NCBI GenBank assembly: GCA_013336275.1
Contig: JAAXUA010000003.1
Span: forward strand, 130,698-194,697
Direction of reading: 5' to 3'
From: Candidatus Falkowbacteria bacterium
GTDB taxonomy: Bacteria; Patescibacteriota; Patescibacteriia; Patescibacteriales; GWE2-39-37
DNA: 64,000 nt
The notes below the pieces were generated by a model, which searched no databases, had not been told where the DNA came from, and worked only from the letters and a program-made list of their open reading frames with translations. Shown in pieces: positions 8,628 through 64,000 of this stretch; the stretch's first letter is position 1, and every line of letters starts with the position of its first letter. The translations under genes and the position numbers were made by a program.

Positions 8628-9278
8628 TTAAACGAAATTGGGACGCTTGATGACTTGGACGATCTGGCCGTTAACCAAGTACTTGTCGGCGTCTGAGCCG
8701 TGGATATAGATCGGCTGGATCGGCAAAGTGGATTCGGAGACCAGGGCGATCTGCTTGCGCGAGGTGTCGTGATAGAATCTTTTGATATTGGCGACATCGT
8801 CGATTACGGACAGGACGTAGTCGCCGTTATGCGGCGCTTTTTTGTGGCTATCGATTATGACATAGTCGCCGTTTTCGATAGGGCCGCCTGGGGCGGCAGT
8901 GGCTTTATTCATGGAGTCGCCGACGGCTTTGATAATGAAAAGCCCCTCAGGCTTTTTGCGCCCCGTAACGGCTGGCGATATCTTTAGGTACCCCTCGATA
9001 TTCTCCTCGGCGTAGATGTCGGCCGGACCGCAGTTGGCGGAGCCCATAATCGGTAAATTGAACAGCGGGGCAGTTTTGGACTTGACCGAAGCGGTGGCGG
9101 TTATGCTGTGGTTATTCGCATCTTTTTGCAAGAAGCCCTTTTTTTCGAGCTGCTCTAAATGATGTTTGACCTTTTGCGGGTGCGACTCTCCGACCAGCTG
9201 GCCGAGCTTTCGTAAGCCGACGGAGCTGATGTCTAATTGCTTGGTCAGTTGCAGTATTTTTTGTTGGATGATGTGCAT
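8628..9278 (-). CDS. lexA: LexA-like SOS repressor (S24 peptidase)
   Basis: 216 aa. N-terminal winged HTH (HPQKVKHHLEQLEKKGFL). C-terminal S24 catalytic Ser in AVGDSMN and Lys in ANIKRF. Confidence 0.85.
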   Translation of the reverse strand: MHIIQQKILQLTKQLDISSVGLRKLGQLVGESHPQKVKHHLEQLEKKGFLQKDANNHSITATASVKSKTAPLFNLPIMGSANCGPADIYAEENIEGYLKISPAVTGRKKPEGLFIIKAVGDSMNKATAAPGGPIENGDYVIIDSHKKAPHNGDYVLSVIDDVANIKRFYHDTSRKQIALVSESTLPIQPIYIHGSDADKYLVNGQIVQVIKRPNFV

Positions 9279-9301
9279 AAGTTTTTTGTGTTTCTGAAAT
9301 C

Positions 9302-9329
9302 ATTGTAGCAGGTTAGCCAAAATAGTCAA
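9302..9329 (-). promoter_or_regulatory. promoter TTGACT-16-TACAAT for lexA
   Basis: Read on the reverse complement of 9302-9329. Confidence 0.5.
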
Positions 9330-9330
9330 G

Positions 9331-9352
9331 AGTGTTCAAGAAACTTGACACT
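9331..9352. promoter_or_regulatory. imperfect inverted repeat AGTGTTCAAGAAACTTGACACT; candidate LexA operator
   Basis: Outer arms AGTGT/ACACT and inner arms TCAAG/CTTGA. Sits in the divergent lexA / dinB-operon intergenic region and overlaps the -35 of the plus-strand promoter. Confidence 0.4.
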
Positions 9353-9373
9353 ACGTCAAAACCGCAGTAAACT
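9345..9373 (+). promoter_or_regulatory. promoter TTGACA-17-TAAACT for the small ORF-dinB operon
   Basis: TTGACA at 9345-9350 and TAAACT at 9368-9373. Confidence 0.5.
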
Positions 9374-9401
9374 AAGGGTACTTAATCATTAAAGCACACC
9401 T

Positions 9402-9650
9402 ATGCTTGAGCAAGTGCATGAACCGATCGAGGTCTTGGTCAAGTTTTACAAGGCCCAGGTATTCCCCTCGTTCTTTAAGTGGCGTGAAAAGACCTATAAG
9501 GTCGAAAAGGTGAATTTGGTGCATCGTCTGAAAGAGGGCGAAAACAACATTTACTATTTCAGCGTCAGCGATAATGCTAATTTTTTCCGACTGGCCTTCT
9601 TCACGAAAGACCTGTCCTGGAAAATCGAAGAGCTTTACCATGAAGCATAG
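9402..9650 (+). CDS. small conserved-looking protein co-transcribed with dinB (82 aa)
   Basis: Overlaps the dinB start by 11 nt. Aromatic and beta-rich (FFKWREKTYKVEKVNLVHRL...YYFSVSD...FRLAFF...WKIEELY). Resembles small SH3-like ORFs I recall upstream of Y-family polymerases; the family name is uncertain. Confidence 0.55.
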   Translation: MLEQVHEPIEVLVKFYKAQVFPSFFKWREKTYKVEKVNLVHRLKEGENNIYYFSVSDNANFFRLAFFTKDLSWKIEELYHEA

Positions 9651-10848
9651 GATCATCGTCCACCTGGACATGAATTCTTATTTCGCTTCGGTTGAACAGC
9701 AGGCTAACCCGTTTTTGCGCGGCAGATCAGTGGCGGTTTGCGCTTATTTGTCTGAGAACGGGACAATCATCGCTTCGTCTGTCGAGGCCAAGGCTAAGGG
9801 CATCAAGACTGGCACGCGGGTCAGTGACGCTTTGCGTCTCGACCCCGAGCTGGTATTAGTTGAAAACGAACCAGCCAAATATCGAACGGTCACGGAGCGG
9901 ATTTTCAATATCCTACGCTCGTATACTGATGCGATGGAGCCTTATAGCATTGATGAGGCTTTTATGGACCTGACTGGCTGGGTCAAGGATTTTGCCGAAG
10001 CCGAGCAGGTGGCGCAAAAGATCAAGCAACGCATAACGATCGAAGTCGGTGATTGGCTCCGCTGTTCAGTGGGTATTTCCTGGACTAAGTTTCTGGCCAA
10101 GTTCGCCGGCGATATCGCGCCAAAGGGCGGTGTCCTGGTGATCACGTCAGAAAATCTGGAAAGCTTCTTGCTTTGCGATGTGCAGACAGCTTGGGGAATC
10201 GGCAAAGCCATGGCGGCACGCTTGCGGAGCTATGGGATCGTGACGCTCCTGGACCTTAAGAACAGCGACCCGATATTGCTAAGGCTGCGTCTCGGCAGTT
10301 GCGGCTATTATTTATGGTGCCATGTCAACGGACGAGAGATTTCAGGCGTCGCCCAAGAAGCGTCTCTGCCTAAGTCCATCGGCCATTCTTATTGCCTGCC
10401 AAGAAAAACTAGCGACAAAGAATATTTGGCCAAGGCATTGCTTAAGCTCTGCGAAAAGACGGGGCGCAGGCTAAGGGCACTCGGATTGGAGGCGAAAACC
10501 GGACATCTTTACGCCAGCTGCCTCCATGATAGTTACCACCAGAAGACTTTTCGCAGCCAGGAGGGAATTTTTACGACCAATGATCTATTTATGCCCCTTC
10601 ACGCCTTTTTATTGCAGACCAATTTGCCATTGCCAGTCTTCAAACTGGCAGTTACGGTAACCGGATTGGCTCCAGTCTCGAACCAGCTGGAATTATTTTC
10701 CGATAGATCAAAACACAAAGACATTAGCCTGGCCATGGACAGGATAAATGATCGTTATGGTGAATACACGGTAAAGAGCGGCTTGATGCTGGGCAGCGAC
10801 GACATGGCCAAGGACCGTGTCGGCTTTCGTAAAGTGGCAGGCTTATGA
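9640..10848 (+). CDS. dinB: DNA polymerase IV (Y-family)
   Basis: MKHRIIVHLDMNSYFASVEQ...YSIDEAFMDLTG; canonical Y-family catalytic motifs. Start taken at ATG 9640; the track ORF begins upstream in frame. Confidence 0.9.
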   Translation: MKHRIIVHLDMNSYFASVEQQANPFLRGRSVAVCAYLSENGTIIASSVEAKAKGIKTGTRVSDALRLDPELVLVENEPAKYRTVTERIFNILRSYTDAMEPYSIDEAFMDLTGWVKDFAEAEQVAQKIKQRITIEVGDWLRCSVGISWTKFLAKFAGDIAPKGGVLVITSENLESFLLCDVQTAWGIGKAMAARLRSYGIVTLLDLKNSDPILLRLRLGSCGYYLWCHVNGREISGVAQEASLPKSIGHSYCLPRKTSDKEYLAKALLKLCEKTGRRLRALGLEAKTGHLYASCLHDSYHQKTFRSQEGIFTTNDLFMPLHAFLLQTNLPLPVFKLAVTVTGLAPVSNQLELFSDRSKHKDISLAMDRINDRYGEYTVKSGLMLGSDDMAKDRVGFRKVAGL

Positions 10849-40299: not shown

Positions 40300-40344
40300 T
40301 TGCGATGGAAAATGCCAAAGCTCCGAAACCGGAGCTTAGTGCTG

Positions 40345-40721
40345 TGGAGATGAGGAGAGTTGAACTCCTGTCTAATGAAGTTTTTAAAAACAGTTTACAA
40401 GCCGTAGCTACTTTATTTGTCTAGCTGTAATCATCAAAAGTGGCAAAAGCGATTACAGCGATCCCTGAAATTTCGGACAAACGACCAGGGCCTTCGATTG
40501 CCTATCTCTGAAGAATAACACCCGGATCGCGAGACCAGAGACTACCCGCGGCGGATGGTTGCGGCTATTAAGCGGCAACAGGTGCAAAGGCAGGTACCTT
40601 CCAGGTAAAGCCTTTGGCTAAAGTGTTTTTGGCACTTATGAATTTGAACCAGTTTTAGGCGATGATTCAGCGCCGGCTTGAGTGTTTTCAAAGTTCTTCA
40701 CTATCGATGCCCGTCATCCCC
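40345..40721 (-). ncRNA. ssrA: tmRNA (ssrA)
   Basis: The 5' GGGGATGACGGGCATCGA pairs with 3' ...CATCTCCA, including the G3:U wobble. T-arm GGAGTTCAACTCTCC. Internal tag frame GCC AAA AAC ... GCA CCT GTT GCC GCT TAA TAG gives (AKNTLAKGFTWKVP)AFAPVAA** (complement of 40565-40633). Immediately downstream of smpB. Confidence 0.85.
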
Positions 40722-41206: not shown

Positions 41207-41355
41207 ATAATTGCTTAATTCTAGTATAATTCCAGACTATTTACAACCTCTTGCCAAAAATAATAAAATTATCTATACTAACCTTTAGTAAAAAGCTCGA
41301 ACAAAGCTTTTTCTATTTTTCCACAATTAGTATCAAGCAGTCTTAAAGGCAGAGA

Positions 41356-41427
41356 GCGGGTATCGTATAATGGCTATTACATTACCTTGCCATGGTAGAG
41401 ATGGGGGTTCGATTCCCCCTACCCGCT
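41356..41427 (+). tRNA. tRNA-Gly (GCC)
   Basis: GCGGGTATCGTATAATGGCTATTACATTACCTTGCCATGGTAGAGATGGGGGTTCGATTCCCCCTACCCGCT. Acceptor GCGGGTA/TACCCGC, anticodon loop TTGCCAT, discriminator U. Confidence 0.9.
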
Positions 41428-41450
41428 CCCTGCTTTTAAATTTCTCAAAG

Positions 41451-41542
41451 AGGGGTATCGCCTGCCTGCCGGCAGGCAGGTATAATGGCTATTACATTAC
41501 CTTGCCATGGTAGAGATGGGGGTTCGATTCCCCCTACCCGCT
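41451..41542 (+). pseudogene. second tRNA-Gly(GCC) copy disrupted by a 20-nt palindrome in the D-loop, with two acceptor-stem changes
   Basis: Identical to copy 1 from TATAATGG to the discriminator. Positions 1-2 read AG instead of GC, giving two acceptor mismatches. CCTGCCTGCCGGCAGGCAGG is inserted between ...GGTATCG and TATAATGG. Confidence 0.6.
41461..41480. repeat. 20-nt perfect palindrome CCTGCCTGCCGGCAGGCAGG (copy 1)
   Basis: Read directly; identical to 53934-53953. Confidence 0.95.
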
Positions 41543-41554
41543 CAAGAAGCAAAA

Positions 41555-41578
41555 ACAGTCCTAATAGGGCTGTTTTTT
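41555..41578 (+). terminator. intrinsic terminator after the tRNA-Gly pair
   Basis: ACAGTCC-TAATA-GGGCTGT followed by TTTTT. Confidence 0.6.
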
Positions 41579-44115: not shown

Positions 44116-47100
44116 ATGTTTCTAAAAGACCAAGAAGTACAACAGGTTTCGGGGGTGACACCGCAAGAAAGCGTTGCCAAGACCCCTAATTTTAAAAAAA
44201 TCATCGTTGCAGCGCTCGCGTGTCTGGTTGTTGCCGGCGCCGGATTGGCGGCCTTCAGTTTTTTGAGTTCGCAAAATGACGCGACTGGAAAGCTCAAGCT
44301 GTCATTGTCGGTTAAAGGGGCTGACCTTAACGGCATTGAAAAGGGCGCGGCCTTTATCCTGTCTTCAAACAAGAAATTATCCGCAGGAGAAATCGAAAAG
44401 AATTTGAAATTCGACCCGCAGGTAAAATTCGAAGCAAAAGAAAAGAAGTCTTTGCTTACGTCATTGGTGAATAGCGTTCTGGCTGCCAGCCAAGGCGGCG
44501 CATTCAATAATGAGTATGAGCTTACGCCCAAGGAAGAATTATCGGATGGGGTGATATATAAGATTCAGACCGCCACCGGCACCGAGATGCAGCTTGATCA
44601 TGATTATTCTTGGGCCTTCAATGTCAAAGAGGATTTCGATATCGATGAATCATTGCCGAACAATGAGGCGACCGGGGTGCCGGTCAACACGGGAATCGAG
44701 GTGACGATGAACCGGTTGGATATCGGTAGTGACGCCGGAAAATATTTCGCCATCGAGCCGAGCATCAAGGGTCGATTCGAGGTTGGAATAAACAAGATCA
44801 CTTTCGTGCCCGAGGGCGACTTGAAAGAAAAAACGTTGTACAAGGTCACGATAAAGAAGGGCTATCAGGCTGGCGAGAAAAATGAAGAGCTCATGGAGGA
44901 TAAGTCATTTTCTTTTGAGACCGCCACTGGCGATTCTGGCGCATACGCGCCGAGTATGTCATGGGGCAATGATTATTTTGAACTATCGACTGATAAGGAA
45001 GGATTTTTGGAGGCAAGCGGCGACGCCACCACATCGGAGGCAGTGTTTAGCCGATACGCCGATACAGCAGGATTTTTAAAAGATTTTTATGATTATCGCG
45101 ACCGCATGTATGGCTGGTCGAACTTCAATAAGGAGCCCTTCAAGCCTGGCTCCGGAGTGCAAGAGGTCGCCAAGTTCAGGCCGGAGTTGCTGAAGCGCGC
45201 TGAGGGTGACAGCTATGGATTGATCAAGCTGCCACGTAAATTGGACGCCGGTTTTTATGTGGCCAAGCTGTCAGTCGGAGATGATACGGATTACGCTTTC
45301 ATCAGGGTTTCTCCATTGGCGTACTATTATTCGGAAATCAACGGTGATGGTCTCATTTGGGCATATGATTTTGCCAATAAAAAACCTTTTGCCAGCGTCA
45401 GGGTGAGTTTGCTTGATAAGGCAGGAACCGAGAAGCAGCTGGGGCAGACTGATAATGACGGCCTGCTAAAGTTTGATTCCAGCTCGGATAAGGATGATAA
45501 TTCCGGCACGACCTTGCTCTTCAAGGGGGAAGGTGTTGGCGAAACAGTTGCTCCCGATGCCGGGCGCATCATGCAGAAGCGTCGCAACTATTTTCAGGGT
45601 TATCTTAATACTGATCGTTACGCATATCGCCTGACGGACACGGTTCATTTTTGGGGAGTGGTCAAAGGCAGGAGCTTCGACTTGAGGCAGAAGAAAGTCA
45701 AAGTCCGTTTGGATGACTATATTGAAAAAGAGGTCATGGTTTCGCCATTCGACACGATCGAGGGGCAGCTTGATTTCGCCGGACTTCCTTCGGGGTACCA
45801 CAATCTTGTTGTCAGCTATGACGACGAGACGATTACCCAATCCGGAATCGAGGTCTTTTCTTTTGAAAAGCCGCTTTACAAGATAGAGGTTGTGCCAGAA
45901 AAGAGCTTTTCTGTGACGGATGTCCCGGTTAAGGCCAAAGTGAAGGTTAATTTTTTCGATGGCACACCGGTCAAAAACATGGATTTGAATTATTCCATTT
46001 ATTGGCGCGGTGATAATAATGGAACCGTCAGGACCAATGATCAAGGAGAAGCCGAACTCTCCTACACCCCCGGTTATTATTTTGAAGAGACTAGCGACCA
46101 ATATTCCGATTCTTGGACGACTTATCCCAACAGTCTGAGATTCTCGGTCAAGCCGCAATTGCCGGAGGAGGGCGAGATTTGGGGAGAGGCTTATGTCAGT
46201 ATTTATGCCCCCAAGGTCTATCTGCAATCCGAGGCTTCAGAAAAAGGCAACGCCTTGGTGTTCAAGAGCAAGGCTAACGACCTGGAGCTGGCAACGAGCT
46301 CTGAGGAAAACATGATCGGCAGGCCGGCCGTCGGAATCAAGGTTTTGGCCAAAGTTGTCCGGTATTATTATGAAGAAAGACCAGACGGGGAATATTATGA
46401 CCCGATCGAGAAAGTTAAAATCAAGAAGTTTGTTTATGAATTAAAGAAGGAGACAGTCAAGGAGGCCGAGGGCACGAGCGATCAGAAGGGCGAGTGGTCG
46501 GTGGAGGTAGACAAGAAAGAAATAAAGAAATTCGGCTACCTTAAAACCATCTTTTCGACCCAGGATAGCAACGGTAAAAAAGTGATGAGCTCCGCCCAGT
46601 CTTATAACTACTATCCGAACGATAACAGCGCATTGAATCTGGAAAATGCCGACCTCGAAAAGACCCCAGGCATTTCCTACAAAATCGGTGATAAGGTTAA
46701 TTTGCGGGTGGTCATGACTGGCACCAAAAAGCCGGTCGATGACCGGACTTTAATTATCAGCTTCCAGGAACGGTTGCGAGACGCGAAGCTGGTCAGCAAG
46801 CCGGAATTCAGCGAGGATTTTTCCGCGGAGCACCTACCTTCAATGACGTATATGGCCGTCAAGATGATGCCGAGCGGCTTCATTGAAAGTTATTATATTA
46901 CGGCGTCGTATAAGGACGAGGAGAATAAGCTGTCTGTCGAAATCGCACCCAACAAGGAAAGGTACAAGCCCCGCGAAGACATCAATCTTGATATCACGAT
47001 AAAGAATAAATCAGACCAAGGCGTCAAGGCAGTGGCCAACGTTGCGGCCGTCGATGAATCGCTATTCAGTGTGACGCCTTGGGGCTATGGCGGAGAGATT

Positions 47101-49518
47101 TTGAGCTCATTATATTCAGACATCATGGCTTATCCCAACTCCTTGTCCACTCGCTATGTTATCGATTATCGGAACGGCGCGGAGAAGGGTGGTTGTTTCG
47201 TCGCTGGCACGGAAATCAACCTCGCCGATGGTACGAAGAAGAAAATAGAGGAGCTGCGAGTCGGCGATGAAGTGTCGACTTTCGAAAAAGATAATTCTCC
47301 TACCAGAGCCAAGAGCGTGATCCAGGGCATATCATCACATTTGGTTGATGGCTACCTCGTGATCAACGGTCAGCTGAAAGTTACGCCTGAACACAAGATC
47401 ATGGTCAGCGGAGAATGGAAAATGGCCGGTGCCGCCAGGGTGGGAGATCTCTTGGCCAATGATCAGGGTGAGTCTGAGAAAATCAGCGAAATAAGATATG
47501 TCGGATCCAGGAATGCCAGGGTTTATAATATTATCGTCGGACGATACCACACCTATTTCGCTCAGGGTTATTATGTCCATAATGCCGAAAAGGGCGGCGG
47601 CGGGGATGTCAGGAATTTTTTCGAGGACACGCCGCTGTATAAGCAGATAGAGTCGGATGACAATGGCCAGCTCAAAGCCTCGTTCAGGGTACCGGACAAT
47701 CTGACTAGCTGGAGAGTTTCTGTTAACGCCTATAGTCCGGAAAGCTTTAGCGCTGGCAGCCAAGACAAGCTCATTCCTGTTGGATTACCGCTGTTTGCCG
47801 ATGCCGTGGCGGCCAGAAAGTATCTGACGGGCGACTCGCCCATCATTAAAGTCAGAGCTTTCGGCACCGAGTATAAGAAAAATGAGCCGATTGAGTTCAG
47901 CGTGACGAGCGATAGCTTGAAATTGCAATTCGCGACCACGACCAGCTTGAACGAAGTGGCGGTGAGTCTTGGCCGTCTGCCCAAGGGAAGACATAGCCTG
48001 ATTCTCCGGGTCAAGCAGGGAGAGCTCAAGGATGCTTTGGAAAAGAAATTCGAAGTCATAGATAATTATTTCAAGGAATTGAAGACCGATAGCCGGCTGA
48101 TTACCGATGGCCAGGCCGGGCTTAAGGGGAATAGCGGCAGTTTCACTGACATTGTTTTCGTCGATGAAGGCAAAGGCAAATTCTTCGAAAGGCTTTTGGG
48201 ACTCAACTGGCAATCAAGCGTACGTTCCGACATTCAATCGGCATCATATCTGGCGGCCAAGACTTTGGATGAATATTTCTATGGAGGTGAAAAAAAATTC
48301 AGCCAAGAGATCAGCTTAGCCGGTTATCAGTCCCGTGAAAACGGGTCAGGTCCGCTGGCAGTTTTCCCCTACAGCAAGCCTAATCTGGCCTTGACCGCGG
48401 AGATCGCTGATGCCATGCCGGAATCATTCGACAATTCATGGGCGATAAACGGCCTAGAAGCGCGATTACGCGAGCAGAAGCTTGATGATAAAGAGACGGC
48501 TCAAGCGCTTTGGGCGCTAGCGGCCCTGGATAGGCCGCAGCTGCCGCTGATTAACTACCTTAAGGATAGTGCCAGCACCTCGCTGGAAGCCAAGGTTTAT
48601 CTGGCCTTGGCCCTGAGCCGAGTGGGCGACGTTGAAGGTGCCCGCGCCTTGTATTTTGATCAGCTGCTTCCGCAGACGAAAGCTGACGGAGGACAAGCGC
48701 ATTTAGAGGTTTCTGCCGTCAAAGAGAAGAACGTCAAAGTTACCGCGATCTTCGGCGTTCTGGTATCGCGCATGGAAGCTGGTATGGACGGCAATAATCT
48801 GAAGTCGATCATGAACTACCTCTCAGCCAATCAGCCTAAAGATGACACGATAACGCTCGAGGAGGCCATGATCACGAGAAGTGAGATCGCTAAGGCCGAT
48901 CAATCTGACAGCTCCCTCGATTTCCGGACGTCAGACCGTAACGGTAAGATTGATTTGAGCAAGGGGCAGTCGTTCCAGCTGACTATTTCCGAACAAGAGA
49001 TGCAAACATTGTCTTTTAGCAATATCAAAGGATCGGCCAGAGCGATCAGTTATTACGAGGATTATGCTGACCCGGCCAAAATGACGACCAGCAAGTCGGT
49101 CAGCGTTGAGCGGCAGTACTTGGTCAATGGCAAAGAGGCGACCGAGTTCAATGAAGGTGATCTTATCACGATCCGCTTGACGCCTCGTCTTTCGGCCGAA
49201 GCTCCCGACGATTCCTATCAGCTGGTTGAGTATCTGCCGTCAGTATTCAAACCCATCGTCCGCGATTATAGCCCGGACATGCAGACCGGCAGCAATTGCG
49301 ATCCGATCTGGTATCCGGTAAGGACGACCGACGAGGCCGTATATTTCAGCATCGGCAAATGGTTCCAGTCGTCGAATGTTTGCCAGCAACGGACAATCAA
49401 TTTCCGCGCCAGGGCTATCGGCAAAGGAAGCTTCAAAGCGCAGCCAGCAGCGATACAGTCTTTGAATGATGTGGGCATAATGAACTTGTCGAAAGAGAGG
49501 ACCGTTATAGTCAAGTAA
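44116..49518 (+). CDS. signal-anchored alpha-2-macroglobulin-family protein (MG-domain array, no CxEQ thioester) with an embedded Hint domain
   Basis: 1800 aa. N-terminal KK + TM anchor. MG-type motifs (DRYAYRLTDTVHFWGVVKG; VANVAAVDESLFSV). A2M-domain hallmark RNFFEDTPLY...FRVPDNLTSWRVSVNAYS. Helical TED-like region without C-x-E-Q, and only 4 Cys in total. C-terminal VRTTDEAVYF...RARAIGKGSFKAQPA resembles the bacterial A2M end domain. Confidence 0.8.
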   Translation: MFLKDQEVQQVSGVTPQESVAKTPNFKKIIVAALACLVVAGAGLAAFSFLSSQNDATGKLKLSLSVKGADLNGIEKGAAFILSSNKKLSAGEIEKNLKFDPQVKFEAKEKKSLLTSLVNSVLAASQGGAFNNEYELTPKEELSDGVIYKIQTATGTEMQLDHDYSWAFNVKEDFDIDESLPNNEATGVPVNTGIEVTMNRLDIGSDAGKYFAIEPSIKGRFEVGINKITFVPEGDLKEKTLYKVTIKKGYQAGEKNEELMEDKSFSFETATGDSGAYAPSMSWGNDYFELSTDKEGFLEASGDATTSEAVFSRYADTAGFLKDFYDYRDRMYGWSNFNKEPFKPGSGVQEVAKFRPELLKRAEGDSYGLIKLPRKLDAGFYVAKLSVGDDTDYAFIRVSPLAYYYSEINGDGLIWAYDFANKKPFASVRVSLLDKAGTEKQLGQTDNDGLLKFDSSSDKDDNSGTTLLFKGEGVGETVAPDAGRIMQKRRNYFQGYLNTDRYAYRLTDTVHFWGVVKGRSFDLRQKKVKVRLDDYIEKEVMVSPFDTIEGQLDFAGLPSGYHNLVVSYDDETITQSGIEVFSFEKPLYKIEVVPEKSFSVTDVPVKAKVKVNFFDGTPVKNMDLNYSIYWRGDNNGTVRTNDQGEAELSYTPGYYFEETSDQYSDSWTTYPNSLRFSVKPQLPEEGEIWGEAYVSIYAPKVYLQSEASEKGNALVFKSKANDLELATSSEENMIGRPAVGIKVLAKVVRYYYEERPDGEYYDPIEKVKIKKFVYELKKETVKEAEGTSDQKGEWSVEVDKKEIKKFGYLKTIFSTQDSNGKKVMSSAQSYNYYPNDNSALNLENADLEKTPGISYKIGDKVNLRVVMTGTKKPVDDRTLIISFQERLRDAKLVSKPEFSEDFSAEHLPSMTYMAVKMMPSGFIESYYITASYKDEENKLSVEIAPNKERYKPREDINLDITIKNKSDQGVKAVANVAAVDESLFSVTPWGYGGEILSSLYSDIMAYPNSLSTRYVIDYRNGAEKGGCFVAGTEINLADGTKKKIEELRVGDEVSTFEKDNSPTRAKSVIQGISSHLVDGYLVINGQLKVTPEHKIMVSGEWKMAGAARVGDLLANDQGESEKISEIRYVGSRNARVYNIIVGRYHTYFAQGYYVHNAEKGGGGDVRNFFEDTPLYKQIESDDNGQLKASFRVPDNLTSWRVSVNAYSPESFSAGSQDKLIPVGLPLFADAVAARKYLTGDSPIIKVRAFGTEYKKNEPIEFSVTSDSLKLQFATTTSLNEVAVSLGRLPKGRHSLILRVKQGELKDALEKKFEVIDNYFKELKTDSRLITDGQAGLKGNSGSFTDIVFVDEGKGKFFERLLGLNWQSSVRSDIQSASYLAAKTLDEYFYGGEKKFSQEISLAGYQSRENGSGPLAVFPYSKPNLALTAEIADAMPESFDNSWAINGLEARLREQKLDDKETAQALWALAALDRPQLPLINYLKDSASTSLEAKVYLALALSRVGDVEGARALYFDQLLPQTKADGGQAHLEVSAVKEKNVKVTAIFGVLVSRMEAGMDGNNLKSIMNYLSANQPKDDTITLEEAMITRSEIAKADQSDSSLDFRTSDRNGKIDLSKGQSFQLTISEQEMQTLSFSNIKGSARAISYYEDYADPAKMTTSKSVSVERQYLVNGKEATEFNEGDLITIRLTPRLSAEAPDDSYQLVEYLPSVFKPIVRDYSPDMQTGSNCDPIWYPVRTTDEAVYFSIGKWFQSSNVCQQRTINFRARAIGKGSFKAQPAAIQSLNDVGIMNLSKERTVIVK
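47194..47583 (+). other. Hint / bacterial intein-like (BIL) domain, residues 1027-1156 of the A2M-like ORF
   Basis: CFVAGTEINLADG (Cys1, block A), LKVTPEHKIMV (T-x-x-H, block B), VYNIIVGRYHTYFAQG (block F), YYVHN (block G). The +1 residue is Ala. AEKGG flanks both junctions. Confidence 0.8.
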
Positions 49519-53885: not shown

Positions 53886-53918
53886 TTTTACATTAGTTAC
53901 AATAGAGTAAAATAATAA

Positions 53919-53969
53919 GCCGAGGTGGTGAAACCTGCCTGCCGGCAGGCAGGTTGGTATACACGCATG
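53919..53969 (+). pseudogene. 5' fragment of tRNA-Leu(CAG) carrying the 20-nt palindrome in the D-loop
   Basis: GCCGAGGTGGTGAAA-[CCTGCCTGCCGGCAGGCAGG]-TTGGTATACACGCATG matches the intact gene at 54028. It then diverges (AACATGCGTGCCCGGGG...) and has no T-arm or 3' acceptor. Confidence 0.55.
53934..53953. repeat. 20-nt perfect palindrome CCTGCCTGCCGGCAGGCAGG (copy 2)
   Basis: Read directly; identical to 41461-41480. Confidence 0.95.
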
Positions 53970-54027
53970 AACATGCGTGCCCGGGGTACTTGGAAAAACA
54001 ATATTTTACAATAGAATAAAATAATAA

Positions 54028-54111
54028 GCCGAGGTGGTGAAATTGGTATACACGCATGCTTCAGGTGCATGTGGGGGCAACCCCGTGGAGGTTCAAGTCC
54101 TCTTCTCGGCA
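54028..54111 (+). tRNA. tRNA-Leu (CAG), type II
   Basis: GCCGAGGTGGTGAAATTGGTATACACGCATGCTTCAGGTGCATGTGGGGGCAACCCCGTGGAGGTTCAAGTCCTCTTCTCGGCA. Anticodon stem CATGC/GCATG, loop TTCAGGT. Confidence 0.9.
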
Positions 54112-54261
54112 CAATCAGATTTCAGTAAGAAATCTCCTACTAAATTAATAAGGAGTACGCAAGGACTCTTGGTCGGCGCGCTTAGCGCCGCTTTGAACTC
54201 TCGCATCGGCTCAACCGATGCAATTTTTCCGGACAATGATCCGGAGCTACTCATCAAATCT

Positions 54262-59347: not shown

Positions 59348-59382
59348 GAACCAGTCCTAATAGTAATTTAAAAATAACGAAA

Positions 59383-59398
59383 CCTGCCGTCAGGCAGG
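59383..59398. repeat. hairpin CCTGCC-GTCA-GGCAGG (same stem as the 20-nt palindrome)
   Basis: Read directly. The flanks GAAA|...|CTGG resemble the flanks of the copy at 53934 (GAAA|...|TTGG). Confidence 0.8.
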
Positions 59399-59400
59399 CT

Positions 59401-59461
59401 GGCAAAATGCAAAATTTATGAAGCTCTGTCAGACAGAGCAACAAGAATTTTACATTTTGCC
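59401..59461 (+). promoter_or_regulatory. long bipartite hairpin + U-tract in the rpmF leader (candidate attenuator / r-protein leader)
   Basis: GGCAAAATGCAAAATT...AATTTTACATTTTGCC (16 bp, one mismatch) encloses GCTCTG-TCAGA-CAGAGC and is followed by TTTTAAGTTTT. It ends 20 nt before the rpmF ATG. Confidence 0.45.
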
Positions 59462-61124: not shown

Positions 61125-61140
61125 CCTGCCTATAGGCAGG
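61125..61140. repeat. hairpin CCTGCC-TATA-GGCAGG (same stem family)
   Basis: Read directly, 22 nt upstream of the pilT ATG. Not followed by a T-run. Confidence 0.8.

Positions 61141-62654: not shown

Positions 62655-64000
<1,346 letters not shown>

Follow-up and report, generated by a model that had tools for sequence, protein, structure and literature searches.

A 20-nucleotide perfect palindrome in tRNA pseudo-copies of a Patescibacteria chromosome: a probable miniature insertion element and its association with GIY-YIG genes

How can one and the same short palindrome come to lie inside copies of two different tRNA genes of a single chromosome? The question is raised by a stretch of 64,000 nucleotides (nt) from Candidatus Falkowbacteria bacterium (assembly GCA_013336275.1, contig JAAXUA010000003.1, positions 130,698 to 194,697), in the following called the window. 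It represents a Patescibacteria chromosome of ~48% GC with genes for transfer-messenger RNA (tmRNA), SmpB, trigger factor, IF3 and RNase J, and it takes in the beginning of a 23S rRNA gene. Its RNase J is identical to an NCBI protein that bears the label 'Candidatus Falkowbacteria bacterium', whereas no exact record exists for its SmpB protein. The perfect palindrome CCTGCCTGCCGGCAGGCAGG, 20 nt long, has been found exactly at 41461-41480 in a copy of a tRNA-Gly gene and at 53934-53953 in a copy of a tRNA-Leu gene, and nowhere else in the window, even when up to three mismatches are allowed. A sequence-only reading of this DNA had already reported the two tRNA sites, the intact gene next to each insert-bearing copy and the exclusion of chance, all of which have been borne out: the expected count in the window is 0.00 (100 shuffles) against the two copies seen, and the relaxed pattern CCTGCC-N(0-20)-GGCAGG yields six matches at four places where 0.03 are expected. 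As a DNA hairpin the palindrome forms a stem of 8 bp with a 4-nt loop (−8 kcal/mol). The idea of a sequence of the cyanobacterial highly iterated palindrome (HIP1) type has found no counterpart, as the context GCGATCGC is not enriched. We regard it as probable that the palindrome is a miniature insertion element residing in pseudo-copies which were left by the invasion of cassettes with a GIY-YIG nuclease gene, the open reading frames (ORFs) having since been lost.

Two tRNA loci of the window

At the glycine locus, an intact tRNA-Gly(GCC) gene on the forward strand (41356-41427; called by ARAGORN, 61.2 bits with the Rfam tRNA model) is followed, after a 23-nt spacer (41428-41450, forward strand), by a second copy that is identical to the first over 64 nt (41480-41543 against 41365-41428). 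This second copy begins with AGGGGTATCG (41451-41460, forward strand), is interrupted after tRNA position 10, in the D-arm, by the palindrome (41461-41480, no strand assigned), and continues with the remainder of the tRNA (41481-41543, forward strand), which is 100% identical to copy 1. A terminator at ~41556-41578 is conserved, being homologous to that of the related locus L121 (loci fetched for comparison are given as L with a number). The insertion is clean, as had been proposed: the palindrome lies precisely between ...GGTATCG and TATAATGG, and no bases are duplicated or lost. Two acceptor-stem pairs are broken at the 5' end as read from the sequence; the AG for GC that had been recorded there is equally readable as a 1-nt deletion (caaagaG-GGGTATCG against cagagaGCGGGTATCG), in which case the similarity reaches ~7 nt upstream of the tRNA. 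Tools for tRNA detection are misled here, with ARAGORN (as tRNA-Gly) and Rfam both calling 41472-41543 a tRNA. This is a false call: ARAGORN reaches it only by using one half of the palindrome as an acceptor strand, and Rfam scores copy 2 at 41.9 bits.

The leucine locus has been built differently. A lineage-specific block of 132 nt on the forward strand (53886-54017), missing in the relative L236 according to the alignment and its indel list, comprises new upstream sequence, the palindrome-bearing 5' fragment of tRNA-Leu(CAG), a spacer and the first part of the duplicated upstream sequence. Within it, a first duplicated segment of 37 nt (53897-53933, forward strand), consisting of 22 nt of upstream sequence and tRNA nt 1-15, is 97% identical to 54006-54042; the palindrome follows (53934-53953, no strand assigned), again inserted cleanly, in the D-loop after nt 15; and a second segment of 16 nt (53954-53969, forward strand; tRNA nt 16-31) is 100% identical to 54043-54058, so that the fragment stops in the anticodon stem. 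The subsequent spacer of 36 nt (53970-54005, forward strand) opens with AA-CATGCGTG, and this forms a second perfect hairpin with the end of the second segment, CACGCATG. Also in the spacer is the −35-like hexamer of what resembles a promoter of the intact tRNA-Leu(CAG) gene (54028-54112, forward strand; ARAGORN; 49.6 bits in Rfam), which is conserved in L236-L240. As the fragment carries promoter-proximal sequence, it represents duplicated DNA and not the copy of an RNA. The palindrome-bearing copies at both loci are non-functional tRNAs, and the functional genes are those at 41356-41427 and 54028-54112.

Comparison with relatives shows that the window state is derived, since these are single-copy at both loci and free of the palindrome. 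Syntenic relatives possess one tRNA-Gly(GCC) adjoining SmpB, and the sole tRNA-Gly of the two closest at this locus (L121 and L122, 90% SmpB identity) is 100% identical to copy 1 of the window. Both (L121:2600-2800 and L122, minus strand) show the intact tRNA-Gly, a terminator hairpin and, after ~190 nt more, a 3' fragment of this tRNA that is 18 nt long, from which it follows that the glycine locus had been partly duplicated before the palindrome came. The block of ~190 nt contains a hairpin with a 19-bp stem (aaataaatatgttttgccg...cggcaaaacatatttattt) and no ORF; a similar block with a 25-nt fragment has been observed in L138. The spacer between the window's tRNA-Gly copies is partly homologous to the relatives' sequence 3' of tRNA-Gly (window ctgcttttaaatttctcaaagagggg, L121 ctgctttaaattttgttcgagaggggg); in L121, the corresponding stretch takes in the terminator hairpin's 3' half and what follows it. 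Directly 5' of copy 1, the window holds 27 additional bases (41329-41355, forward strand), which are missing in the alignment with L121 and L122, where ccacaatt is directly followed by TGCGGGT; in L132 a GIY-YIG ORF sits at the matching position and abuts the orthologous tRNA-Gly with its stop codon within the D-arm, and the 27 bases are possibly the remnant of an earlier insertion. In Saccharibacteria-like relatives (L132 with three copies, and L133/L136 upstream of tRNA-Gly), the AT-rich intergenic DNA around tRNA-Gly is further crowded with the GC-rich hairpins CCCGCCGAGTCGGCGGG, GCGGGCTTGCCCGC and GTTCCGCCATGGGCGGAAC, and L133 has a 110-nt insertion bounded by CTTGCC repeats upstream of tRNA-Gly.

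For the leucine locus, L236 (95% RNase J identity, ~79% DNA) has a single tRNA-Leu(CAG), which starts 10 nt after the upstream gene, and no family hairpin in 20.5 kb. A 100-nt insertion with a 3' fragment of tRNA-Leu(CAG) (TCAAGTCCTCTTCTCGGCACAA) is present downstream of the intact gene in L236 (9720-9826), L238 and L239/L240, which indicates that the same tRNA has been hit independently on its other side. Two related hairpins complete the pattern in the window: CCTGCCGTCAGGCAGG at 59383, in a 21-nt lineage-specific insertion (59381-59401, no strand assigned) 5' of the L32 ribosomal protein gene and missing in L236, and CCTGCCTATAGGCAGG (61125-61140, no strand assigned) 5' of a PilT/T2SSE-like gene, in a region that does not align with L236.

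Insertion sites and distribution of the palindrome

The clean insertion seen in the window is a general feature of the palindrome. Nine pairs of filled and empty sites (both window sites, L004, L083, L106, L109, L037, L118 and L093) differ by exactly 20 nt, and none of the nine shows a target-site duplication (TSD) or a loss of bases. A classic TSD has also been considered for a sharp 7-nt flanking peak at a few sites and rejected, the peak being due to pre-existing tandem arrays of 7-8-mers. Such arrays of 7-8 nt lie beside tRNA genes and palindrome sites in L237 (2130-2230) and L239 (2040-2110), in both upstream of tRNA-Leu(CAG), as well as in L101, L082, L209, L045, L050 and L058; the units in L239 read TTTAGAC TTTAGGC TTTAGCC TTTAGTC, with the four bases in turn at one position. 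In the flanks of the palindrome only a weak, symmetric bias has been seen, which favours A at −1 and −3 as well as T at +1 and +3; a conserved tetra- or pentanucleotide target has not been found. Stems of at least 6 bp bracket 13 of 168 sites where 3.6 are expected, i.e., the palindrome is enriched at hairpin centres and tips; in three loci (L018, L042 and L021) it lies inside another copy of itself, and in L136 an orthologous palindrome is in turn split by another GC-rich hairpin.

Most sites are intergenic, 72% lacking an open span of 150 codons compared with 20% of random positions. All frames of the palindrome are free of stop codons, and its coding copies are read in frame as LPAGRQ in an FtsK motor domain, a GatB catalytic domain, a sugar-nucleotide dehydratase, a trigger factor and a glycosyltransferase of the PMT family (PMT_2). 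The trigger factor site is empty in relatives; its filling has added 21 nt net, to a target with GGCAGA already in place. The intergenic bias together with the retention in frame demonstrates that selection has acted.

In a scan of one genome per species, the exact 20-mer has been detected in at least 120 species genomes, whereas by our own arithmetic (596 Gb / 4^20) ~0.5 occurrences are expected. Among the matches listed, the carriers comprise Patescibacteria, Bacteroidota including cultured isolates, Omnitrophota, Planctomycetota, Verrucomicrobia, Elusimicrobia, Nitrospirota-like groups, Bdellovibrionales and various proteobacterial metagenome-assembled genomes. The 20-mer is further carried by 35 viral contigs, some with several copies; the contig of L221, L228 and L229 is palindrome-dense with a GC content of 60%, and its ORF list is too noisy to single out an enzyme. 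Relatives fetched by SmpB, i.e., not selected for the palindrome, hold five exact and five near-exact copies in ~300 kb, and the copy number in relatives is about one per 30-60 kb. That most carrier genomes are metagenome-assembled might raise the suspicion of an assembly, adapter or chimera artefact, but we assign this a practically negligible probability: the 20-mer is present in isolates (Winogradskyella, Flagellimonas, Longitalea, Flavivirga, Aquiflexum and Aestuariivivens) as well as in assemblies from long reads and in a complete genome that has been curated, its distribution bears the marks of selection described above, and orthologous palindromes share point changes (L133/L143, L196/L198), from which it follows that the element is real, inherited DNA.

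A conserved hairpin may, on the other hand, be a functional one that the host selects and that does not move, such as an operator, a signal for RNA processing or stability, or a terminator. The exact conservation of 20 bases agrees with this, as do the mostly intergenic location and the variant CCTGCCTACCGGTAGGCAGG in L244, in which a compensatory double change keeps the perfect symmetry. We nevertheless hold such a role to be very improbable, because presence and absence differ among close relatives at every site examined, copies occur in pseudo-copies, in coding sequence and nested in themselves, no T-run follows the palindrome, its position relative to genes is inconsistent, and no Rfam family matches the hairpin. 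The sequence-only reading had named a ubiquitous generic hairpin as the outcome that would speak against its proposal, and the result is divided in this respect: the palindrome is widespread and mostly found outside tRNA, but it is not generic, and its enrichment at tRNA genes, quantified below, is real.

The 20-mer does not appear to stand alone. A de novo census of palindromes in the fetched DNA has revealed a second GC-rich perfect palindrome, TCCGCCAGCTGGCGGA, with nine copies in eight loci of different phyla (L011, L015, L016, L032, L040, L108, L110 and L125, e.g., L040:4467-4482) and a near-variant in the window at 9189-9205. It is located at the centres of longer hairpins and, in L032, in frame in a DHH-family gene. 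In the viral contig of L221/L229, moreover, one repeat unit has either the 20-mer or TCCGCCGCGGCGGA at its centre. Since TCCGCCAGCTGGCGGA acts alike and the 20-mer is exchanged for TCCGCCGCGGCGGA within a repeat unit, the 20-mer is taken as one member of a class.

Among the closest known systems are repetitive extragenic palindromes (REPs), alone or in bacterial interspersed mosaic elements (BIMEs), with their RAYT transposases: these are likewise short (20-40 bp), dispersed, non-coding, hairpin-forming repeats without a TSD. The sequence-only reading had suggested a mobile hairpin of REP/RAYT or IS200/IS605 style, for which a Y1 HUH transposase, RAYT or TnpA, with its gene at another place in the genome would transfer the element as single-stranded DNA. 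Its first half has proven right, in that an inserted element without TSD, far beyond chance and enriched at tRNA genes, is present; the assignment to this type we consider improbable. Insertion without TSD, the hairpin itself and the preference for hairpin tips and structured DNA would suit it, and IS1397 and IS621 are known to insert into REP loops. REPs, however, run to tens to hundreds of copies, are strictly extragenic and are lineage-specific, while the 20-mer has a low copy number, occurs also within genes (in frame in FtsK, GatB and trigger factor) and in copies of RNA genes, and is identical across phyla. According to PMC3733652, the two large REP superfamilies are defined by a GTAG or CGTC tetranucleotide at one end of an imperfect palindrome; the 20-mer has neither head, begins with CCTG and is perfectly symmetric. 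The palindrome-associated transposable elements (PATEs) derived from IS200/IS605 are characterized by insertion 3' of a fixed tetra- or pentanucleotide target and by unlike hairpins at the left and right ends, in place of which a single symmetric hairpin with a weak A/T flank bias has been found here. The suggested search for a Y1 transposase or RAYT gene has given nothing within the window, among whose ~45 ORFs no transposase, HUH, Y1_Tnp/RAYT or HNH gene is present.

Other short mobile palindromes are known from organelles. The GC clusters of yeast mitochondria and the double-hairpin elements of Allomyces and chytrids are short, GC-rich and mobile in AT-richer DNA, are tolerated in frame and in variable regions of rRNA, and often border insertions of free-standing endonuclease ORFs; they are, however, organellar, ~30-70 bp long or composed of two hairpins, and species-specific, whereas the 20-mer is bacterial and viral, 20 bp long and shared across phyla. 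Rickettsia palindromic elements (RPEs) measure 100-150 bp and are confined to Rickettsia, in contrast to 20 bp across phyla. Miniature inverted-repeat transposable elements (MITEs) are comparable in being non-autonomous, with inverted repeats and an enzyme encoded elsewhere, but have at least 50 bp and a TSD of fixed length. The element resembles REPs, mitochondrial GC clusters and RPEs and differs from them in size, perfect symmetry, cross-phylum identity and association with tRNA pseudo-copies and GIY-YIG genes. Neither the 20-mer nor its 13-mer core nor LPAGRQ occurs in any paper of the literature searched, keyword searches having returned analogies only, and as far as the available literature shows the element appears to be undescribed so far.

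tRNA pseudo-copies and GIY-YIG genes

At 13 of 168 sites, the sequence obtained by joining the flanks of the palindrome matches a tRNA through the junction, compared with 10 of 1680 random positions (~13-fold), and an intact 'empty' copy is located within 400 nt at 12 of 127 sites compared with 1 of 2520. Wherever the neighbourhood is readable (L029, L099 and L225 being left out), the tRNA carriers are pseudo-copies beside an intact copy of the same tRNA. In the window's leucine locus, L001, L004, L030 and L083 the carrier is a 5' fragment located upstream of the intact gene, its D-arm containing the palindrome; in L176 it is a 3' fragment, located downstream of the intact gene, whose T-loop contains the palindrome, and relatives lack fragment and palindrome together. 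The T-loop position recurs in L029, the variable loop is occupied in a tRNA copy of L225, and in L093 a 5S rRNA fragment is the carrier. Altogether, the palindrome has been observed at nt 9-22, at the junction of anticodon stem and loop, in the variable loop and in the T-loop, and this variety argues that structure and not sequence is recognised.

These carriers also decide on the proposal of an unusual D-loop intervening sequence, by which the insert-bearing copies would be functional tRNAs with an intron that is removed from the transcript. Although the tRNA calls by ARAGORN and Rfam and the 64 identical nt of the tRNA-Gly copies might be taken in its favour, we have abandoned this proposal as hardly credible. 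Without the palindrome, the tRNA-Gly would still be mispaired at two acceptor positions and the tRNA-Leu still truncated, carriers elsewhere are 5' or 3' fragments with inserts at nt 9-22, at the anticodon stem, in the variable loop or in the T-loop, and the 20-mer is found, unchanged, in protein-coding and intergenic DNA as well. The tRNA introns known from bacteria are group I ribozymes with a length of about 200 nt or more, placed in the anticodon loop, and archaeal ones need a bulge-helix-bulge motif; the insert is a 20-nt sequence in the D-arm that matches no Rfam intron family and folds as a plain 8-bp hairpin without flanking 3-nt bulges.

In at least six loci from different phyla, the arrangement of pseudo-copy with the palindrome or a close variant, GIY-YIG ORF and intact tRNA has been found in this order: L037 (WWE3), L106, L118 (Chitinophagales), L232 (viral), L077 (Bdellovibrionales, variant with one mismatch) and L243. 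The encoded proteins of 78-91 amino acids (aa) consist of the bare catalytic domain (PF01541) without a DNA-binding domain. Among solved structures, the UPF0213 proteins BH0048 and EF2693 are closest to them and the structure-specific endonuclease SLX1 comes next, while I-TevI is far more distant (E = 0.003); NCBIfam has no name for them. Bacterial stand-alone Slx1-like domains have been described as the minimal GIY-YIG form in a survey from 2006 (PMC1564403), where the mobility of the domain was noted and its parasitic status left open. In L083, the spacer retains only the first seven codons of the ORF (MFYVYIQ). Looking from the nuclease side, three of six loci that were ascertained by GIY-YIG have family hairpins in the adjacent tRNA copy, namely L242 (on the same contig as L232, with an exact palindrome again), L243 (a 20-nt family variant in a tRNA-Arg fragment) and L244 (three inserts in one tRNA-Leu pseudo-copy, among them the variant CCTGCCTACCGGTAGGCAGG).

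Partial duplication by an invading GIY-YIG gene has precedents. In fungal mitochondria, free-standing GIY-YIG genes bring along a partial duplicate of the invaded gene (PMC4162613, PMC5626475). The likeness to our loci lies in a small ORF in or by a conserved gene, a duplicate that restores function and a displaced fragment that remains as a pseudo-copy. The segB gene of phage T4, which codes for a GIY-YIG endonuclease, lies in a tRNA cluster. The proteins at our loci differ from these fungal and T4 cases by the ~80-aa catalytic domain of Slx1/UPF0213 type without a DNA-binding domain and by varying end points of the fragment. The corresponding footprint, a partial tRNA duplicate beside an intact copy and absent from close relatives, has been found in the window. 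The view that duplications and palindrome are connected has held up; of the idea that both are a scar of recombination at tRNA genes, the duplications match the GIY-YIG footprint, but a constant 20-mer across phyla would be left unexplained.

One may then ask whether the palindrome is simply an integral part of the GIY-YIG cassette, arriving along with the nuclease gene by homing or co-conversion from a donor allele, so that solitary palindromes would be cassettes minus their ORF; its role might be to block recombination between the tRNA repeats, to protect the leftover copy from re-cutting or to stabilise the 5' end of the mRNA. In the six loci above and in L060, the palindrome (or a close variant of it) precedes the ORF by 16-46 nt in a consistent orientation, which fits this, as do a half-copy ~45 nt upstream of the ORF in L010, the joint absence of fragment and palindrome in relatives of L176, and the hsdS gene of L060, where palindrome and GIY-YIG domain form one continuous frame and the 20 nt of the palindrome bring the N-terminal part of HsdS in frame with GIY-YIG. 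Between palindrome and ORF, however, lie 6-34 nt of host tRNA sequence, which is not the structure of one contiguous insert, and the same variation has ruled out a fixed distance from cleavage to insertion as in an I-TevI-type homing endonuclease, whose DNA-binding part is missing here as well. The nuclease as an obligatory partner has likewise been discarded, since none of the seven GIY-YIG genes in the unbiased, SmpB-ascertained loci adjoins a palindrome. Considering further that most sites are devoid of any tRNA and of any remnant of an ORF, among them sites in housekeeping genes where 21 nt have been inserted in frame and relatives have a simple empty site, and that the three inserts in one pseudo-copy of L244 point to repeated separate events, we judge a palindrome that belongs to the cassette to be rather unlikely.

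Several observations concern GIY-YIG genes and the window more generally. In L010 (2900-3420), a larger GIY-YIG gene with a KNW-type C-terminus is split by an insert of ~190 nt that resembles a MITE and has terminal inverted repeats (aaggggactgttttcaa...), and the half-palindrome, GCCGGCAGGCAGGCAGG, precedes its start. A complete tRNA-Leu(TAA) is nested between the 5' (GTCCAGTGGTGGAATTGGTATACAC...) and 3' parts of another tRNA-Leu(TAA) in L143 (3680-3850) and L136 (4030-4200), with a GIY-YIG ORF directly upstream in L143. The tmRNA/SmpB neighbourhood of relatives is a hotspot with seven GIY-YIG genes in 387 kb, most of them by SmpB, tmRNA or tRNA genes; the tmRNA of the window (40344-40721), with the unusually long predicted tag AKNTLAKGFTWKVPAFAPVAA, adjoins SmpB and tRNA-Leu(TAA). 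The first 1344 nt of the 23S rRNA gene (62657-64000) cover 1154 model positions and thus hold ~190 nt extra, with inverted repeats at 62893-62944 and 63497-63546, and a GIY-YIG ORF lies inside the 23S region of the Saccharibacteria relative L093 (4806-5021). The window also encodes, at 44116-49518, an alpha-2-macroglobulin-like protein of 1800 aa with a Hint/intein-like domain (PT-HINT, Vint) at about residues 1022-1155, as does L236, and, at 8628-10848, a LexA-like S24 peptidase whose gene is oriented divergently from that of a Y-family (IMS) DNA polymerase, possibly an SOS mutagenesis module in a bacterium with a small genome.

A proposed origin and its meaning

The explanation we favour as probable combines two processes. 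The damaged tRNA copies would be a by-product of Slx1/UPF0213-like GIY-YIG genes that settle at tRNA loci together with a partial duplicate, the nuclease ORFs of the window having presumably been deleted afterwards with only the short spacers left. The 20-mer would be a non-coding, perfectly palindromic element of a small class of GC-rich palindromes of 16-20 bp, identical across phyla and phages, that enters DNA cleanly, without a TSD, and preferably where stem-loops can form: hairpin centres, its own copies and the arms of tRNA. Selection would keep it only where it is harmless, i.e., between genes, at in-frame positions of proteins and in dispensable pseudo-copies of RNA genes; as the latter fold like tRNA and are dispensable, they would be places where the element accumulates. 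By analogy with L083, L037, L118 and L106, a GIY-YIG ORF would have occupied the position of the leucine spacer, and we infer the same origin for the glycine spacer.

Insertion itself may take place at breaks in extruded stem-loop DNA, for which the GIY-YIG nuclease is the leading candidate break-maker because of its co-location, its kinship to a structure-specific nuclease and the stem-loop targets. A re-ligated cut-out fragment or microhomology copying from another copy are candidate sources of the constant 20-mer. The farther-reaching proposal, that palindromes of up to 20 bp are propagated by stand-alone Slx1/UPF0213-like GIY-YIG nucleases which cut extruded stem-loop or cloverleaf DNA, followed by ligation or microhomology copying, is put forward tentatively, and we ourselves consider it more doubtful than not.

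A number of observations weigh against this explanation. No GIY-YIG ORF is present between the tRNA copies of the window, whose spacers measure only 23 and 36 nt, and neither a GIY-YIG gene (tblastn) nor another candidate mobilising gene has been found in the window, so that the ORF loss is deduced from other loci only. Weak resemblances to such proteins in the two spacers and the 27 nt upstream of copy 1 (...PGYLEKQYF... and ...SIKQS followed by a stop) are not claimed, given the shortness of these sequences. Together with the seven SmpB-ascertained GIY-YIG genes that lack an adjoining palindrome, the finding that most palindrome sites have no GIY-YIG gene in their 8-kb locus implies that the link may be indirect, through a shared association with tRNA pseudo-copies. 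The tRNA-Gly pseudo-copy is downstream and of full length, unlike the usual upstream 5' fragment, and with a partial tRNA-Gly duplicate already present in the closest relatives, the history of this locus is more complex than a single event. Some sites lie within the tandem arrays of 7-8 nt, which are outside the model's account. Finally, the identity of 20 bases in distant phyla is unexplained by the model, and since hydrolytic GIY-YIG nucleases are not known to join DNA, a second activity would be needed.

Some consequences are practical. The palindrome leads to false tRNA calls, as at 41472-41543, lengthens conserved proteins by seven residues and has joined reading frames in one case, and it offers a sharp marker of recent insertion for strain-level comparison in uncultured lineages. 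If the proposed propagation by stand-alone nucleases is true, such palindromes, identical from Patescibacteria to Bacteroidota, Planctomycetota, Proteobacteria and phages, would be the smallest known mobile DNA; the UPF0213 proteins of bacteria would gain a first function, and the recurrent tRNA pseudo-copies as well as the short in-frame LPAGRQ insertions in housekeeping proteins would be accounted for. If the explanation favoured here is right, a selfish element of 20 bp has gone unnoticed in a large part of the bacteria, and the size limit of mobile DNA would be placed well below MITEs and REPs. It would raise the question which conserved enzyme keeps 20 bases identical across phyla, would provide a testable role for the very common, uncharacterised stand-alone GIY-YIG (UPF0213) proteins, and would mean that their genes repeatedly colonise tRNA loci by partial tRNA duplication.

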